Origin: a virus
Taxonomy: Duplodnaviria; Heunggongvirae; Uroviricota; Caudoviricetes
DNA length: 5,635 bases
IMG/VR virus record: IMGVR_UViG_2645727901_000019
Strand: one strand, 5' to 3'
Part shown: positions 79 through 5,635 of the stretch, one piece after another
How the letters are laid out: each line of letters begins with the position of its first letter
Position numbering within the stretch: the first letter of the stretch is position 1
Program-made: the position numbers and the translations under genes
The notes under the pieces: generated by a model
The model's database searches: none
What the model was told of the DNA's origin: nothing
The model's input: the letters and a program-made list of their open reading frames with translations, nothing else

Positions 79-152
79 GTTGGAGTCATTACCTTGCCTT
101 ACAACAGTATATTGAATGGAATTTAATTCAAAAATACGGCGAAGCTGAAGGA

Positions 153-314
153 ATGGGAAGAGCGCTGTTTCTTTATCAGAAAATGCTCACTACTTCCCCT
201 GATAAAGGTTTCATTCTTTCAGATATGGGTCGAGAAGGGCTTGAAATCCTTCTGGATGAAATTATTAACGAAATGAATACTCATGGCATGCAATCCGAAA
301 CAGATATTAAGTAA
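153..314 (+). CDS. Possible small hypothetical protein (53 aa)
   Basis: First ATG of a frame-0 ORF open from 36 to TAA 312-314 (MGRALFLYQKMLTTSPDKGFILSDMGREGLEILLDEIINEMNTHGMQSETDIK). GAAGGA lies directly against the ATG, so SD spacing is poor. Low-GC segment. Weak call. Confidence 0.25.
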   Translation: MGRALFLYQKMLTTSPDKGFILSDMGREGLEILLDEIINEMNTHGMQSETDIK

Positions 315-324
315 AAGGGACCAC

Positions 325-573
325 ATGACCGTTATCGAGTATATCCAGGAAAATCCAGATTGCAGTAGAGAAGATATATCCCTCGCACTTGGAAGAAGCG
401 CAACTTCTATCAGTAATGAATTATCACGGTTATTGTGGAATGGGTTAATAGTACGAACTGGAGAAAAAAACAAAATGATTCTGTACTGCGTAAACAATCT
501 GCCGTTTGGATACAGCAATCCCCTAAGTGTTATGTTCAACCAGTTACTTAAACAGGTAAGAAATGGCAACTGA
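325..573 (+). CDS. Small winged-helix-turn-helix DNA-binding protein (82 aa), function unknown
   Basis: ATG 325 preceded by AAGGGA (315-320). Translation MTVIEYIQENPDCSREDISLALGRSATSISNELSRLLWNGLIVRTGEKNKMILY... has the helix-turn-helix-wing pattern of MarR/ArsR-like wHTH proteins (recognition-helix candidate SISNELSRL, wing IVRTGEKNKMILY). An in-frame ATG at 283 lacks an SD. Lies in the low-GC segment. Confidence 0.6.
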   Translation: MTVIEYIQENPDCSREDISLALGRSATSISNELSRLLWNGLIVRTGEKNKMILYCVNNLPFGYSNPLSVMFNQLLKQVRNGN

Positions 574-880
574 CTCACAACTAACCATAGAAACGGCCCT
601 GAATGTCGGCCTGGCGCTCCTTGGTTATTTTTACATCGTGTTCTGCAGCGGACGGTGGCTGTCGCTGTTGTTCCTGAAAAAATGGAATAAACGCCGTAAG
701 CAGGATGAACGCCAGAAGGCAATGAATGCGTTTTCCGAAGCCTTCGGAATTGACGGCATGGAACCAGGGGATCCAGCTCGCGCAATCAGCAGAGGGGGTG
801 TAGTAATCCTTGTATATCGGAGTGAAGAGAAAAATGACGATCACAAAACAACGAGTAGAAAAAATCATATATCGCCATGA
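563..880 (+). CDS. Small membrane protein (105 aa): one long hydrophobic helix then a basic/charged tail
   Basis: ATG 563 with AGGT 5 nt upstream; overlaps the wHTH stop (TGA 571-573) by 11 nt. Residues ~11-38 (TALNVGLALLGYFYIVFCSGRWLSLLFL) are hydrophobic, followed by KKWNKRRKQDERQK. Codon usage resembles neighbouring genes. Confidence 0.5.
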   Translation: MATDSQLTIETALNVGLALLGYFYIVFCSGRWLSLLFLKKWNKRRKQDERQKAMNAFSEAFGIDGMEPGDPARAISRGGVVILVYRSEEKNDDHKTTSRKNHISP

Positions 881-1148
881 AATGGGACTGAACAGCGATG
901 TCACTGCCGAAGAGGTTTATGACCTGGCTGTACTGGCGCTGAATTTATCAAATATCGCAAACCTGAAGCGATACGAGCTTGATATGGATGGTTGCGACTC
1001 GTGCGGTCAGGATTGTGGCGCAGATATGACTGAAAATCCTGATGGTGATTATGTCCTGTTTGATGACGTGGTTAAGTTGTTTGAATTTGATACAACCACT
1101 CAAAAGTTAGAAATCCCGGCAAAGGAGGCTGCCAGTGAGCAAGATTGA
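834..1148 (+). CDS. Hypothetical acidic protein (104 aa)
   Basis: First ATG (834) of the ORF, with GGAG (819-822) and GAAGAG upstream; stop TGA 1146-1148. Alternative start ATG 882 lies 1 nt after the upstream stop (ccATGAaATGg). Acidic, Cys-containing segment DMDGCDSCGQDCGADMTENPDGDY. No family recognised. Confidence 0.55.
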   Translation: MTITKQRVEKIIYRHEMGLNSDVTAEEVYDLAVLALNLSNIANLKRYELDMDGCDSCGQDCGADMTENPDGDYVLFDDVVKLFEFDTTTQKLEIPAKEAASEQD

Positions 1149-1177
1149 CTATCAGGCACTGCGCGAGGCGGCGGAAC
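1119..1177 (+). repeat. Direct repeat copy A (59 bp): RBS plus first ~14 codons of an Ea22-like N-terminal module
   Basis: Base-by-base alignment with 1804-1862 gives 50/59 identical (~85%). Identity starts abruptly at GCAAAGGAGGC and decays after GCGGAAC. Confidence 0.85.
1122..1128 (+). promoter_or_regulatory. Consensus Shine-Dalgarno AAGGAGG for GTG start at 1135
   Basis: Perfect AAGGAGG with 6-nt spacing to GTG; embedded in the 3' end of the upstream CDS. Confidence 0.6.
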
Positions 1178-1320
1178 AGGCAACGCAAGATGAATGGGTA
1201 GCATATATTTTGCCGGGTCATAACGGCATTTATCCTGCGCGCACGTCTGAGGGTAGGCATTGTGCGGATACTTTATTGACTGGCCTGGCGTCTGTCAGGG
1301 GCGGGAGAGCATCAACATGA
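1135..1320 (+). CDS. Ea22-like N-terminal module, truncated (61 codons); possibly a gene fragment or pseudogene
   Basis: GTG 1135 sits 6 nt after a perfect AAGGAGG (1122-1128). N-terminus MSKIDYQALREAAEQATQDEW is paralogous to the N-terminus of the 1820-2305 product (MSEINYQALREVAERA). The ORF stops at TGA 1318-1320 after a tail that does not resemble the paralogue. Confidence 0.45.
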   Translation: MSKIDYQALREAAEQATQDEWVAYILPGHNGIYPARTSEGRHCADTLLTGLASVRGGRAST

Positions 1321-1823
1321 GCATCAGAACCTACGCAGTGAATTGCAATGACGCATGGCTAAACACCGAAGGTGATGACATCTCCGGCTCATACGTTAAG
1401 TACAAAGACCATCAGGAAGTGGTTGCCGCTCTTGAGGCCAAGTGCGCGGCGCTGGCAGCGGAGAATGCGGGAATAAAGTCTGCAATTCCAGAATCACGGG
1501 ATATTGAAGATGACAATGACAATATGGATGACGTATCTCTCGCGGAAGACTTCGGGTTCAATCATGCAATAGAACGGATGAGGAGACAGATACCTGAAAC
1601 GCCAACCACTGATGCTTTCCTGGCTGAAGTCCGGGCGCAGGGGGTGGATGCTGCTATAGAAGCTGCAAAAAATCTGGTGGCCCAAGAATATGAGTATAAG
1701 GATTTCAAAGCGGCGCAGAGTGATTGCTGTATGTACCCTGGTTCAGACCTGGTAGGGAAGGTTGAAATGACTGAGTGGTTAGTTGACTTTGCTGCCCAGC
1801 TTCGCAAAGGAGGCAACCAGTGA
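1317..1823 (+). CDS. Hypothetical protein (168 aa); possibly the displaced C-terminal part of an Ea22-like gene
   Basis: ATG 1317 overlaps the upstream TGA (ATGA); GGGAGAG SD 7 nt upstream. The segment HQEVVAALEAKCAALAAEN resembles PETVLALLDERERN in the 1820-2305 paralogue. Stop TGA 1821-1823 overlaps the next GTG start (GTGA). Confidence 0.6.
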   Translation: MSIRTYAVNCNDAWLNTEGDDISGSYVKYKDHQEVVAALEAKCAALAAENAGIKSAIPESRDIEDDNDNMDDVSLAEDFGFNHAIERMRRQIPETPTTDAFLAEVRAQGVDAAIEAAKNLVAQEYEYKDFKAAQSDCCMYPGSDLVGKVEMTEWLVDFAAQLRKGGNQ

Positions 1824-1862
1824 GCGAAATTAATTACCAGGCACTGCGTGAGGTGGCGGAAC
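1804..1862 (+). repeat. Direct repeat copy B (59 bp), paralogous to 1119-1177
   Basis: Same alignment as copy A. AAGGAGG and the GTG start are at identical relative positions in both copies. Confidence 0.85.
1807..1813 (+). promoter_or_regulatory. Consensus Shine-Dalgarno AAGGAGG for GTG start at 1820
   Basis: Perfect AAGGAGG with 6-nt spacing to GTG; paralogous to the site at 1122-1128. Confidence 0.65.
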
Positions 1863-2305
1863 GTGCAATTCCAGCAATGGAACGCCTGTTAATGTTGCCA
1901 GCTGATGATGACTTGTTAAGTGAACAGGAACTTAAAGATTACGGTGTGGATATTGATGCGCTCAACGCCTTCAAATTTCTGACCGGACCAGAAACCGTGC
2001 TGGCACTGCTGGATGAACGGGAAAGAAACCTGCAATACATCAAAAGCCGCGATCAGGAGAACGAGGATATTGCGCTAACGGTAGGGAAGCTGCGCGTTGA
2101 GCTTGAAGCAGAAAAACAGCGGGCAAAAGTTCTATTTATGGAAAATGCTCGGCTTAAGTCAGGCATAGCCGGTCTGATACACCTCGGTATTCGATATGCA
2201 GATGTTGAGGTCATGAAAATTGCTGGAGATGCCCAGCTTTCTACCCCATGCACTGACAGCATCATAAACAGCATTGCAACAGGCATTCGCATCAAAGGAG
2301 AGTGA
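1820..2305 (+). CDS. ead/Ea22-like family protein (161 aa) with a coiled-coil-like centre
   Basis: GTG 1820 sits 6 nt after AAGGAGG (1807-1813). N-terminus MSEINYQALREVAERA and internal PETVLALLDERE match my recollection of lambdoid-prophage Ea22-like proteins. Heptad-like charged stretch KLRVELEAEKQRAKVLFMENARLK. Stop TGA 2303-2305. Confidence 0.75.
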   Translation: MSEINYQALREVAERAIPAMERLLMLPADDDLLSEQELKDYGVDIDALNAFKFLTGPETVLALLDERERNLQYIKSRDQENEDIALTVGKLRVELEAEKQRAKVLFMENARLKSGIAGLIHLGIRYADVEVMKIAGDAQLSTPCTDSIINSIATGIRIKGE

Positions 2306-2306
2306 T

Positions 2307-2822
2307 ATGGCGTTAACACACCACGAACTCTGTCAGATTGCGTACAAGTTCCTTAAGCGCAACGGGTTCAAGGTTTGCTTTCATGACCGCTTTGTTGCTG
2401 TAACCAGTACCGGAGAACAGCCAGATGCTATGGGATTCAGAAATTCAGCATCATGCCTGATAGAGGCGAAGTGTTCTCGTGCTGACTTGTTGGCAGATAG
2501 AAAAAAGCGTTTCCGTAAAAATCCCTCACTTGGCATGGGCGACTGGCGATTCTTTATTAGTGAGCCGGAAATTATTTCAGTTGAGGATTTACCTCCCGGC
2601 TGGGGATTACTTCACGTTGTTAACGGAAGAGTACGGAAAGTACATGGATGGCCCAGGGGTAATTGCTGTTGGGGTAATCCTGACGATAAGCCATTTACTG
2701 GGAATAAGCAGGTTGAATGCGATTACATGTTATCTGCATTAAGGCGCATGGAGTTGAGAGGGCACCTTAATGAAATATATGACGGTGTGATTGTTAATAA
2801 GAAAGAAGGAAACGCGGCATGA
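2307..2822 (+). CDS. Putative PD-(D/E)xK-fold nuclease (171 aa; Hjc/VRR-NUC-like N-terminal core plus Cys/Trp-rich C-terminal region)
   Basis: ATG 2307 lies 1 nt after the upstream stop, with AAGGAG (2295-2300) upstream. Residues 5-60 show helix(E7)-PD(39-40)-x12-EAK(53-55): HELCQIAYKFLKRNGF...QPDAMGF...LIEAKCSRADL. C-terminal part includes GWPRGNCCWGNPDD. An upstream in-frame TTG at 2274 lacks an SD. Confidence 0.7.
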   Translation: MALTHHELCQIAYKFLKRNGFKVCFHDRFVAVTSTGEQPDAMGFRNSASCLIEAKCSRADLLADRKKRFRKNPSLGMGDWRFFISEPEIISVEDLPPGWGLLHVVNGRVRKVHGWPRGNCCWGNPDDKPFTGNKQVECDYMLSALRRMELRGHLNEIYDGVIVNKKEGNAA

Positions 2823-3577
2823 TCACTATTACCAAAGGGCGACTGCTGACAATCAAGCAGTGGCGCGAAACATACGGACCGGGTAGCAACGTTGTACTGC
2901 CAGCAGAAGAAGCGGAAGAACTGGCACGAATTGCACTGGTATCGCTGGAAGCAGAGCCGGTGGCAAAGATTATAGCTCATTACCCATTAGGAGTTGACGT
3001 AGGCAAACAAAAGTTCGTACAGGCCATTGGAGAGCTTCCTGACTTTGGCGGATATCTATTTGCCGCCCCGCCAGCGCCGGTAGTGCCGGAAGAAGCAACT
3101 CCGGAAAACGTAGAAATGCTCTCTGGCTATGTTTCCACGTACAAATTAACCGATAGCGAGCGCGATATTGCTGCCGAAATATGGAACGCCTGCCGCACCG
3201 CCATGCTTCAGTCCGGAAACTTTCGGGAAAGCAAGAATTCGTCAACCAATAATTTTCGGGAAATCCCGGAAGCGTCAACCAGCTCTCCGGTAACTCCGGC
3301 TCTTCTGCCTGGTGGTTTCACCATTGAGGAGGCGAAGGAATTACATGAAGACCTGGTACGCAGCCACATAAGCAAGGCCTTAAGTGGCGAAAAGATGAAA
3401 AAGAAAGATCGCGATGCTGATTTGCGCTGGATTCATGGCGTTATAGTTCAGGCAGCGTGGTTTGTAAAAGCATCACTGGAGCAGAATGCACTATCGGGCA
3501 ACTCTCCGGTAACTCCGGATGGTTGGATAAGCTGTAGTGAGCGAATGCCGGACGACAGGCAGGAGGTGAATCAATGA
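2819..3577 (+). CDS. Hypothetical prophage protein (252 aa) with an internal repeat-rich linker; ends just after a PDGWISCSERMPDD motif
   Basis: ATG 2819 overlaps the upstream TGA (ATGA); GAAGGAAA SD. Contains a 33-bp tandem repeat (FRESKNSSTNN / FREIPEASTSS) and a 17-bp perfect direct repeat in frame 219 bp apart. The C-terminal motif resembles, from memory, the start of a DUF551-type prophage domain. Stop TGA 3575-3577. Confidence 0.7.
   Translation: MITITKGRLLTIKQWRETYGPGSNVVLPAEEAEELARIALVSLEAEPVAKIIAHYPLGVDVGKQKFVQAIGELPDFGGYLFAAPPAPVVPEEATPENVEMLSGYVSTYKLTDSERDIAAEIWNACRTAMLQSGNFRESKNSSTNNFREIPEASTSSPVTPALLPGGFTIEEAKELHEDLVRSHISKALSGEKMKKKDRDADLRWIHGVIVQAAWFVKASLEQNALSGNSPVTPDGWISCSERMPDDRQEVNQ
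3221..3286 (+). repeat. Imperfect 33-bp tandem repeat (2 units) inside the 2819-3577 CDS
   Basis: TTTCGGGAAA recurs at 3221 and 3254 and CGTCAACCA at 3240 and 3273, both with period 33 bp (in frame, 11 codons). Confidence 0.6.
3283..3299 (+). repeat. 17-bp perfect direct repeat, copy 1 (CTCTCCGGTAACTCCGG)
   Basis: Identical 17-mer recurs at 3502-3518, 219 bp (73 codons) downstream in the same frame of the same CDS; flanking bases differ on both sides. Confidence 0.9.
3502..3518 (+). repeat. 17-bp perfect direct repeat, copy 2 (CTCTCCGGTAACTCCGG)
   Basis: See copy 1. Encodes SPVTP in both places (SSPVTPALLPGG vs NSPVTPDGW). Confidence 0.9.
3561..3568 (+). promoter_or_regulatory. Strong Shine-Dalgarno AGGAGGTG for the 27-codon peptide gene
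   Basis: AGGAGGTG lies 5 nt upstream of ATG 3574, inside the last codons of the preceding CDS. Confidence 0.55.
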
Positions 3578-3657
3578 GCTGGCCTGATGCAATCGTAACT
3601 CTGGGGGTGGTATTCGCAGCAGCGTTTGTTGTGTTCTCGATTTGTCGATGGGGATAA
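3574..3657 (+). CDS. Small hydrophobic single-helix peptide (27 aa), not in the supplied ORF track
   Basis: ATG 3574 overlaps the upstream TGA (ATGA); AGGAGGTG (3561-3568) lies 5 nt upstream. Translation MSWPDAIVTLGVVFAAAFVVFSICRWG, stop TAA 3655-3657. Fills the gap between two coupled genes exactly. Confidence 0.45.
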   Translation: MSWPDAIVTLGVVFAAAFVVFSICRWG

Positions 3658-3661
3658 CCAC

Positions 3662-3904
3662 ATGTTCGCTTTGATTCAACGCGGTCAGATATACACGGAC
3701 AGAGCTGGATACCCCGTGGTGATTACTCGCATCACTGAGCACTCAGTGTTCTTTCGACGGATGGACGGACGATCCGGGCGGGTACGCATTGGTGAGTTAA
3801 ACTGCCTGTTCGAACATATTGACCACCAGGAGTACCGCAAAATTCTCGCGGACACTGAGCAGGAAAAGCACCTGAAAAAATTACGAGCCATAAAAAGGAA
3901 GTAA
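3662..3904 (+). CDS. Small hypothetical prophage protein (80 aa)
   Basis: ATG 3662 lies 4 nt after the peptide stop; GGGGA upstream. Translation MFALIQRGQIYTDRAGYPVVITRITEHSVFFRRMDGRSGRVRIGELNCLFEHIDHQEYRK... Possibly a DUF4222-like small prophage protein (recollection only). ORF-track start 3626 is TTG without an SD. Confidence 0.6.
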   Translation: MFALIQRGQIYTDRAGYPVVITRITEHSVFFRRMDGRSGRVRIGELNCLFEHIDHQEYRKILADTEQEKHLKKLRAIKRK

Positions 3905-3907
3905 AGA

Positions 3908-4042
3908 ATGAATAAAGCATTTGAACGATGGGTCCACCAACGTTACGGCAATCGCTATGACCTGACGCGAGATGTTGACGGCTTCTACTGTCGTGAAGTT
4001 GTGAAGCGAATGTTTGAAGTGTGGTGCCACTGCCGTGGATGA
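3908..4042 (+). CDS. Small Cys/His-containing protein (44 aa), unknown function
   Basis: ATG 3908 with AAGGAAG SD (3895-3901), 3 nt after the upstream TAA. Translation MNKAFERWVHQRYGNRYDLTRDVDGFYCREVVKRMFEVWCHCRG; stop TGA 4040-4042. Below the ORF-track size cut-off. Confidence 0.45.
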   Translation: MNKAFERWVHQRYGNRYDLTRDVDGFYCREVVKRMFEVWCHCRG

Positions 4043-4060
4043 AAATTTTATGAGGTTGGC

Positions 4061-4315
4061 ATGCAGACAATCATCTATCAGATAACCCCCAGCAAATGGT
4101 GTACGGAGAGAGTCCTCATTGCATCAACAGGGCTAAAGCCTGGCACCATTGAGCGGGCAAGAAGAAAGTCATGGATGCAGGGAAAAGAATACCGCCATTA
4201 CGCTGTAGAAGGTGATCCGGGGCACTACAGTGAATGCCTGTACAACATCGAAGAAATTATGCGATGGATCGAAAACCAGAAACAACCAGGTGCCAAAAAT
4301 GCAAGTTCCGGTTAA
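4061..4315 (+). CDS. Excisionase-like protein (84 aa; recombination directionality factor candidate)
   Basis: Small basic protein immediately upstream of the integrase on the same strand. Translation ITPSKWCTERVLIASTGLKPGTIERARRKSWMQGKEYRHYAVEG...YNIEEIMRWIE matches my recollection of enterobacterial prophage excisionase-like proteins (DUF1233-type). GAGG 5 nt upstream of ATG 4061. Confidence 0.65.
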   Translation: MQTIIYQITPSKWCTERVLIASTGLKPGTIERARRKSWMQGKEYRHYAVEGDPGHYSECLYNIEEIMRWIENQKQPGAKNASSG

Positions 4316-4348
4316 CCTGTTAATGCTCCTGGACGTCTGGGAGGTTTA

Positions 4349-5635
4349 ATGAGTAACGCATCATACCCGACAGGCGTTGAAAACCATGGAGGATCACTCC
4401 GTATATGGTTTCACTATAATGGCAAACGTGTCAGAGAAAACCTCGGTGTTCCTGACACAGCCAAAAACCGGAAGATCGCTGGTGAACTTCGCACTTCCGT
4501 TTGTTTTGCAATCAGAATGGGGAGTTTCGACTACGCCGCGCAGTTCCCTAATTCCCCTAACCTGAAACACTTTGGTCTGGGAAAAAGAGAGATAACCGTT
4601 AAGGCACTTTCGGAAAAATGGTTGGACCTTAAGAAAATTGAGATTTGTGCGAATGCACTTAATCGTTACCAGTCAGTAATTAAAAACATGTTGCCTATGT
4701 TGGGTGAGAAAAAACTGGTTTCATCCATAACAAAAGAGGATTTACTTTTCGCAAGGAGAGATTTGTTGACCGGTTACCAAAAGCTTTCTAATGGAAAGAT
4801 TTCTTCCATAAAAGGGCGCTCAGTGGTCACAGTAAACTACTATATGACAACCATAGCTGGAATGTTTCAATTTGCAACAGATAATGGTTATACCTCAGGA
4901 AACCCATTTAACGGTCTGGCACCCTTAAAAAAGTCCAAGGTAAAACCAGATCCTCTCACCCGTGACGAATTTATTCGTTTTATTGAAGCTTGCCGTCATC
5001 AACAAACAAAAAACCTGTGGATTCTCGCTGTATACACGGGTATTCGTCACGGGGAGCTGGTATCGCTGGCATGGGAAGATATAGATCTTAAAGCAAGGAC
5101 TATAACCATCCGTAGGAATTATACAAAACTTGGCGAATTCACTCCACCAAAAACCGATGCTGGCACCGGAAGGACAATTCATCTGGTTCAACCAGCTATT
5201 GATGCTCTTAAAAGTCAGGCGGAAATGACCATGCTTGGAAAGCAACATTCTGTAGAGGTAAAGCAGAGGGAATATGGGAGAAGTACTGTGCATAAATGCA
5301 CTTTTGTTTTTAGTCCTCAGGTAATAAAACAGCGGCAGTTTTCCGGACCGCACTATAAGGTTGACTCCATCAGGGAGTCATGGACAAGTATCTTAAAACG
5401 CGCAGGTCTGAGACACAGAAAATCGTACCAATCCAGGCATACTTATGCATGCTGGTCACTTGCCGCTGGAGCTAATCCTAGTTTTATCGCAAGCCAGATG
5501 GGCCACACAAACGCACAAATGGTATTCAATGTTTACGGAGCATGGATGAAAGACAACAATCACGAACAGATAGAACTCCTTAACAAAAGACTATCTGAAA
5601 GTGTCCCATGTATGCCCCATAAGAAAGCTGGGTAA
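4349..5635 (+). CDS. int: Tyrosine site-specific recombinase / phage integrase (428 aa)
   Basis: GGGAGG SD 5 nt upstream of ATG 4349. Catalytic-domain signatures: box I Arg in TGIRHGELVSLAWEDIDL, Lys in PPKTDAGTGRTIHL, box II YQSRHTYACWSL, then GHTNAQMVFNVYGAW with the tyrosine nucleophile. N-terminal ~70 aa resemble an arm-binding domain. Stop TAA is the last codon of the window. Confidence 0.95.
   Translation: MSNASYPTGVENHGGSLRIWFHYNGKRVRENLGVPDTAKNRKIAGELRTSVCFAIRMGSFDYAAQFPNSPNLKHFGLGKREITVKALSEKWLDLKKIEICANALNRYQSVIKNMLPMLGEKKLVSSITKEDLLFARRDLLTGYQKLSNGKISSIKGRSVVTVNYYMTTIAGMFQFATDNGYTSGNPFNGLAPLKKSKVKPDPLTRDEFIRFIEACRHQQTKNLWILAVYTGIRHGELVSLAWEDIDLKARTITIRRNYTKLGEFTPPKTDAGTGRTIHLVQPAIDALKSQAEMTMLGKQHSVEVKQREYGRSTVHKCTFVFSPQVIKQRQFSGPHYKVDSIRESWTSILKRAGLRHRKSYQSRHTYACWSLAAGANPSFIASQMGHTNAQMVFNVYGAWMKDNNHEQIELLNKRLSESVPCMPHKKAG

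Follow-up and report, generated by a model that had tools for sequence, protein, structure and literature searches.

Genes at the locus

The window, i.e. the whole stretch of 5,635 nt that was analysed (IMG/VR record IMGVR_UViG_2645727901_000019), was searched over positions 700-2500 and found to be 100% identical in this part to the chromosome of E. coli O55:H7 RM12579, in the record of which the segment forms the left arm of a lambdoid prophage adjoining mlrA, with xis and int at its end. Two neighbouring genes of the Ea22 family occur there in the early leftward operon, on the same strand as xis and int and upstream of them, which is the location expected for this family. Their ribosome-binding site, start codon and first 16 codons constitute a conserved block that is present once at the 5' end of each gene (Table 1).

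Table 1. Features of the window, with positions counted from its first nucleotide
Feature	Position	Strand	Remarks
Small winged-helix ORF	325-573	+	
DUF4752 gene	563-880	+	
Upstream hypothetical gene	834-1148	+	phrog_3126, without Pfam match; 3' end 14 nt into Ea22-like gene 1
Junction block, copy 1	1119-1183	+	SD AAGGAGG 1122-1128, 6-nt spacer, GTG 1135, codons 1-16 of Ea22-like gene 1
Ea22-like gene 1	1135-1823	+	Split: 1135-1320 (61 aa) and 1317-1823 (168 aa)
ORFs annotated ead/Ea22-like	1135-1320, 1317-1823, 1820-2305	+	
CAGGCACTGCG, exact run of both copies	1153-1163 (also 1838-1848)	+	Crossover interval in contig L110
TGTG (TG in intact alleles)	1261-1264	+	2-bp TG duplication causing the frameshift
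Junction block, copy 2	1804-1868	+	SD AAGGAGG 1807-1813, 6-nt spacer, GTG 1820, codons 1-16 of Ea22-like gene 2
Ea22-like gene 2	1820-2305	+	161 aa, full-length PF13935 match
Central conserved Ea22 island	1994-2116	+	LALLDERERN...coiled coil; second cluster of homology breakpoints
3' boundary of putative cassette	2291-2309	+	ATC AAA GGA GAG TGA (IKGE-stop) contains SD AAAGGAG, 6 nt before ATG (2307) of next gene
ORF without Pfam match	2307-2822	+	
Mosaic "phage protein"	2819-3577	+	
DUF4222 gene	3662-3904	+	
Small ORF	3908-4042	+	
xis	4061-4315	+	PF06806
int	4349-5635	+	

Proteins of the Ea22 family have been described as mosaics in which a common amino-terminal segment and a coiled coil are followed by unrelated C-terminal domains, with two or three variants per genome (PMC10834534, PMC7093339, PMC8614690). 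For Ea22 of lambda and of Shiga-toxin phages, a bias toward lysogeny and a tetrameric state are known, from experiments on those phages only (PMC7093339, PMC10834534). In the window, the three ORFs of the region all bear the name ead/Ea22-like in the PGAP annotation, and their matches to PF13935 (Ead_Ea22) all exceed the Pfam gathering score of 27 bits, with 108.8 bits for gene 2 (profile positions 1-139) and 54.0 and 43.3 bits, respectively, for the first and second ORF of gene 1. Because these last two matches cover profile positions 1-45 and 48-138, the two ORFs represent halves of one gene, and in strain BEC1-S17-ESBL-09, in which TG is found in place of TGTG, gene 1 is intact and encodes 228 aa. 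The first-pass annotation had reported two Ea22-like N-terminal modules; these are genuine 5' ends of the family, but they belong to two complete tandem paralogs, the first of which is split by a 2-bp insertion.

Gene 1 has been inactivated repeatedly, by the 2-bp duplication here and, in strain SF-088, where it is annotated as frameshifted, by the independent loss of 1 nt from a T-run near 1208. The 61-aa form was encountered five times among IMG/VR copies and the intact 228-aa form nine times; in the window, the two half-ORFs are joined by an ATGA overlap (1317-1320).

When ten Ea22-like proteins with different bodies were aligned, the invariant columns were almost all located in the first 16 residues, 11 of which are invariant (M1, I4, Y6, Q7, A8, L9, R10, E11, A13, E14 and A16). 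The corresponding N-terminal peptides of the window, MSKIDYQALREAAEQA for copy 1 and MSEINYQALREVAERA for copy 2, match that of lambda Ea22 (VSEINSQALREAAEQA). Further downstream, gene 2 contains the central LALLDE and coiled-coil segment (VLALLDERERNLQYIKSRDQENEDIALTVGKLRVELEA), which also matches lambda, whereas the coiled coil of gene 1 differs. At the other end, most Ea22-like genes terminate with ATC AAA GGA GAG TGA (IKGE-stop) or a near variant, and the next start codon follows within 1-4 nt; at least 79 of 108 distinct full-length genes end in IKGE, IKGGE, INGGE, IKGD or LRKGGNQ. A terminal "R/KGE motif of unknown significance" has been published for Ea22.

The neighbouring genes gave few functional clues, as PHROGs searches returned only families of unknown function and an NCBIfam search with five proteins gave no match. 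Upstream, the DUF4752 and phrog_3126 genes overlap by 47 nt in different frames, and homology to other phages often starts at ca. 827, just before the start of the latter. Downstream, the ORF without Pfam match is uninterrupted (171 aa), although in RefSeq the annotation covers only 2307-2485, given as a frameshifted pseudogene; the match of the ORF to phrog_9263 starts at profile position 62, and an N-terminal part may be missing. The product of the following gene (252 aa) is a patchwork with direct repeats at 3218-3248/3251-3281 and 3280-3299/3499-3518 (SSPVTP / NSPVTP), its last 16 residues correspond to only the first 16 positions of DUF551 (PF04448), and homology breakpoints pile up within the gene at 3475-3574.

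Anatomy and conservation of the repeated block

A direct-repeat search of the window yielded one outstanding pair, formed by the two copies of the block, which are identical at 54 of 65 positions (83%) with a spacing of 685. Over the first 59 nt of each copy (1119-1177 and 1804-1862), the 50/59 identity noted at first pass was recounted and found correct, and the match extends to 65 nt. Its onset is as abrupt as had been claimed, since identity rises from 3/10 in the 10 nt upstream to 10/10 in the first 10 nt of the block, with a step at 1119/1120; it is back at background past ca. 1189. The longest exact run common to both copies is 11 nt (CAGGCACTGCG). A chance match, already discounted in the first-pass annotation, is ruled out by a top ungapped diagonal score of 32 for the window against itself, when 40 first-order Markov shuffles gave a mean of 12.5 and a maximum of 15.

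Each copy contains the AAGGAGG, the 6-nt spacer, the GTG and the codons for MS(K/E)I(D/N)YQALRE(A/V)AE that had been read from the letters. The upstream ORFs do end in different phases, their TGA stop occupying block positions 28-30 in copy 1 (1146-1148, 14 nt inside the Ea22 ORF) and 18-20 in copy 2 (1821-1823, overlapping the start codon as GTGA). In copy 1, another frame encodes the last 10 codons of the upstream gene (AKEAASEQD-stop). In copy 2, the first 20 nt, including the 16 nt before the start, also encode RKGGNQ-stop, the tail of Ea22-like gene 1 (LRKGGNQ-stop). Conservation had initially been attributed to the Ea22-like module only, and not to the upstream coding sequence; this does not apply to the 16 nt that precede the start of copy 2, which belong to both genes because they also encode the conserved LRKGGNQ tail.

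Adjacent position, same orientation and common family membership would suit a recent tandem duplication in this prophage, in which the two copies of the block are the remnant and the rest of the genes has since diverged. The two genes are, however, at background identity outside the block, and uniform divergence cannot leave 83% identity over 65 nt beside unalignable sequence. Moreover, close relatives of each body (94-100%) occur in other phages, where they are joined to other partners. With bodies that cannot be aligned and closer relatives of each found elsewhere, a recent duplication in situ was rejected, and we regard this origin of the copies as highly improbable.

Another way to account for the block is selection on the N-terminal peptide and the ribosome-binding site alone. 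According to this explanation, which corresponds to the Hendrix model, illegitimate recombination takes place anywhere, the joints at gene boundaries are retained, and the block is but a passive landmark. The SD is a functional requirement, the 10 body types agree in 11 of their first 16 residues, and mosaic breakpoints are common at other gene boundaries of the window (e.g. near 94, 827, 2282, 2818 and 3497). Synonymous positions are, however, nearly invariant across unrelated bodies. This was seen in a codon test with genes retrieved from IMG/VR by a peptide pattern that left synonymous codons free to vary, a scan that retained mostly relatives of copy 2 and thus provided only 6 body types. 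The codons of I4, Q7, A8 and L9 (ATT, CAG, GCA and CTG) are identical in all six, and five of six use CGT for R10, a codon that accounts for 5% of Arg in the rest of these genes; the probability of the same codon expected from the rest of the genes is 0.25-0.6 per site. Selection of this kind also fails to explain why the 16 nt upstream of the start are kept even though they are read in two frames, as AKEAAS... in the phrog_3126 gene and as RKGGNQ-stop in the upstream Ea22-like gene. The constraint on the protein is real, yet the nucleotide pattern of the block is not explained by it; purifying selection alone accounts for part of the conservation. In a scan for the N-terminal peptide with one genome per species, there were only 12 pattern matches and one confirmed locus (Shimwellia), too few to compare synonymous sites between species.

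Conservation of nucleotides beyond what the peptide requires could also reflect a nucleic-acid signal of another kind, whether at the RNA level (a structured RNA or sRNA target), in transcription (a promoter or terminator) or in site-specific recombination. A structured RNA or known RNA family was rejected: an Rfam search at the block gave no match at E<=1 and the two copies fold no better than shuffles (z of +1.43 and +0.67). Promoter-like or terminator-like sites were looked for at the block and none was found, nor was any inverted repeat involving it, so that an integron-like or shufflon-like site, for which neither inverted repeat nor structure is present, was discarded as well. In integron attC, shufflon and DGR systems, a palindromic or structured site goes with a dedicated recombinase or reverse transcriptase; here the only recombinase gene found is the int gene of the prophage, which closes the window, with none seen in the 4.5 kb upstream in the source genome. 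A signal of this sort is therefore extremely improbable.

Reassortment of flanks and natural recombinants

A pattern scan of IMG/VR with the block core retrieved 120 loci, from which 116 occurrences with 150 nt on both sides were used. Clustering of the flanks (ungapped, 85%) gave 28 left and 18 right classes that are associated in 55 combinations, including 33 complete 2x2 (four-gamete) sets; as these loci were chosen for carrying the block, breakpoint counts at its edges are inflated. Among the flanks listed, many unrelated left and many unrelated right sequences surround one same block, and related phages thus do vary at this junction, as the first-pass annotation required. Linkage to the flanks decays along the block: polymorphic sites 1-17 are informative on the left flank only, sites 59-65 on the right flank only, and sites 23-55 weakly on either, the pattern expected of crossovers scattered along the block. 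A block kept by selection only would not account for such a gradual decay, with no break at one edge.

The position of the exchange was further examined with a sliding pseudo-junction control, in which offsets of -560 to +600 relative to the block were applied to 89 non-redundant regions. Four-gamete sets amounted to 9-12 at offsets -40 to +80 and to 0-1 at the other upstream offsets (-560 to -80). Downstream, there were 2-4 at +120 to +160, 4-12 at +240 to +360 and 0-1 from +400. The second peak (+240 to +360) corresponds to the central LALLDE/coiled-coil island, at window positions ca. 1994-2116, which is ca. 91-92% identical between otherwise unrelated genes, with 57 HSP ends at 2100-2124. 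The expectation that breakpoints would cluster at the block is thus borne out by a peak of reassortment centred on it. Exchange is not confined to the block: there is the second peak in the island, and the putative cassette is closed by a conserved 3' boundary.

Three sequences illustrate individual events. Contig IMGVR_UViG_2648501150_000023 (L110), 99.7% identical to window positions 94-1177, follows copy 1 exactly to TATCAGGCACTGCG; the remainder of the contig, which stops 84 nt past the crossover, is 100% identical to copy 2. The switch falls in the longest exact run of both copies (CAGGCACTGCG), a location that conservation by selection only would not predict. A deletion of ca. 685 bp between the copies had been forecast from the letters, and L110 is, as far as the contig extends, the exact product of a crossover between copy 1 and copy 2; some residual probability has to be granted to an assembly artefact at this junction. 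A second contig, L029, has the same backbone (98.8% to 526-1189 and 98.6% to 3499-5635) with the Ea22 body replaced from ca. 1189. In the complete genome CP200004.1, a homolog of the upstream gene (89%) is joined to a body of the copy-2 type (95%), and the two HSPs overlap over exactly the 65-nt block. No exact 685-bp deletion derivative was found top-ranked among 5,426 complete E. coli genomes, in which single-piece matches were relatives of ca. 95% identity.

Taken with the codon and reading-frame data, the decay of linkage and the position of the L110 switch make it rather unlikely that selection on the peptide and ribosome-binding site is the whole explanation. The flank classes, the linkage decay, the sliding control and L110 speak instead for the initial suggestion of a portable start module swapped by homologous recombination. 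Most probably, an Ea22-family cassette has its conserved 5' boundary in the block, which serves as a homology patch for the exchange of flanks between lambdoid prophages. The simplest reading combines both forces: selection on the start region and the N-terminal helix keeps the block similar, and recombination can act on this similarity to homogenise the block and exchange its flanks.

Proposed model and relation to known systems

In the model that we propose, the block is found twice in the prophage on account of the two tandem Ea22 paralogs in the leftward early operon, upstream of xis and int, and would play three roles. It would act as a translation start, in which a strong SD is followed after 6 nt by a GTG that overlaps the end of the upstream gene, an overlap that implies translational coupling. 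It would encode the nearly invariant N-terminal segment of the family, MSxIxYQALREAAExA. Finally, it would provide a short homology patch of near-identical nucleotides among co-circulating lambdoid prophages, at which homologous or homeologous recombination would join different upstream neighbours to different Ea22 bodies and could delete or expand tandem copies. Candidates for the enzyme are RecA of the host and a Red/RecT/Erf-type annealing protein supplied by a co-resident phage. Efficient pairing by RecA requires exact runs well above 11 nt, and RecA-dependent deletion within the element should therefore be rare or inefficient, because the two copies share no longer exact run. Between prophages, block haplotypes are often identical over 40-65 nt; exchange partners should be common, since 475 of the 5,426 complete E. 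coli genomes contain the haplotype of copy 2, which was located on plasmids in 163 places. The rate at which exchange would proceed, the part that the N-terminal peptide may play and the pathway that probably acts are what we infer.

Copy 2 of the block was also detected with tandem Ea22-like genes on E. coli plasmids of ca. 90-120 kb (e.g. NZ_CP086483.1 and NZ_CP195333.1), the size of which suggests that they are phage-plasmids.

A broader version of this model, which we put forward as a possibility with the odds against it, is that Ea22-family genes form a true cassette system. Each cassette would be delimited by the 5' block (SD, start and 16 codons) and by a 3' boundary (IKGE-stop or LRKGGNQ-stop with the SD of the next gene), and would combine a constant scaffold, made of the N-terminal helix and the coiled coil, with interchangeable C-terminal domains. 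Homology-driven exchange would replace whole bodies, stack them in tandem or delete them, much as at polymorphic effector loci. If so, the published R/KGE motif would be mainly a by-product of an embedded ribosome-binding site and boundary sequence, and not a functional motif of the protein. In annotation, likewise, boundary sequences and frameshifts, and not separate functions, may lie behind Ea22-like ORFs that are in tandem or split and behind the terminal R/KGE motif. Exchange at the defined 65-bp block, together with that at the internal island, would explain the origin of the C-terminal domain diversity of Ea22 between phages, and the block may offer a clean and testable natural substrate for the long-standing debate on whether phage mosaics arise by homologous or by illegitimate recombination.

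The closest known counterparts are lambda Ea22 and the variants V1-V3 of Stx phages (PF13935 / IPR025153; PMC7093339, PMC10834534), which share with the genes of the window the HMM family, the opening codons and the early leftward operon position ahead of xis and int. Lambda ea22 opens with GTGAGCGAAATTAACTCTCAGGCACTGCGTGAAGCGGCAGAGCAGGCAA (VSEINSQALREAAEQA), i.e. with the same codons as both copies, but its upstream ribosome-binding region differs. Judging from descriptions, body 1 (228 aa when intact, ending in LRKGGNQ) is absent from the bodies reported for lambda and V1-V3. This published work is at the protein level and does not cover a nucleotide block with its SD, the reassortment of upstream neighbours or evidence of crossover; a limited literature search found no paper on such boundary anatomy or exchange for ea22. 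What is added is thus the DNA-level anatomy of one boundary, a quantitative localisation of exchange and a natural crossover product.

With regard to mechanism, lambda Red recombines DNA that is 22% diverged, with joints in short identical runs (PMC2327257), and homeologous recombination by Red or Rad52-like proteins (PMC2327257, PMC3945230) is able to use short diverged homology such as that of the 83%-identical copies. In contrast to these systems, the pathway acting at the block is one that we infer, in a window with no recombinase other than the prophage integrase.

Earlier work has invoked short conserved boundary or flanking sequences for module exchange in lambdoid phages (Clark 2001, HK620; Susskind & Botstein 1978; cited in PMC3029335, PMC2327257). 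Recombination at such sequences is a classical proposal for these phages, and the block is a further instance of a known phenomenon, not a new idea. As in lambdoid boundary sequences, a conserved stretch of a few tens of bp lies at a gene boundary between unrelated, non-homologous flanks; many phages carry it with different modules on either side, in combinations that peak at the block, and crossovers fall inside the conserved sequence, as seen in the linkage gradient and in the L110 switch within CAGGCACTGCG. The earlier examples are mostly intergenic and from the nin region. Unlike them, the block described here reaches from the SD through the start to codon 16, and the preceding gene ends within it, in one of two different frames.
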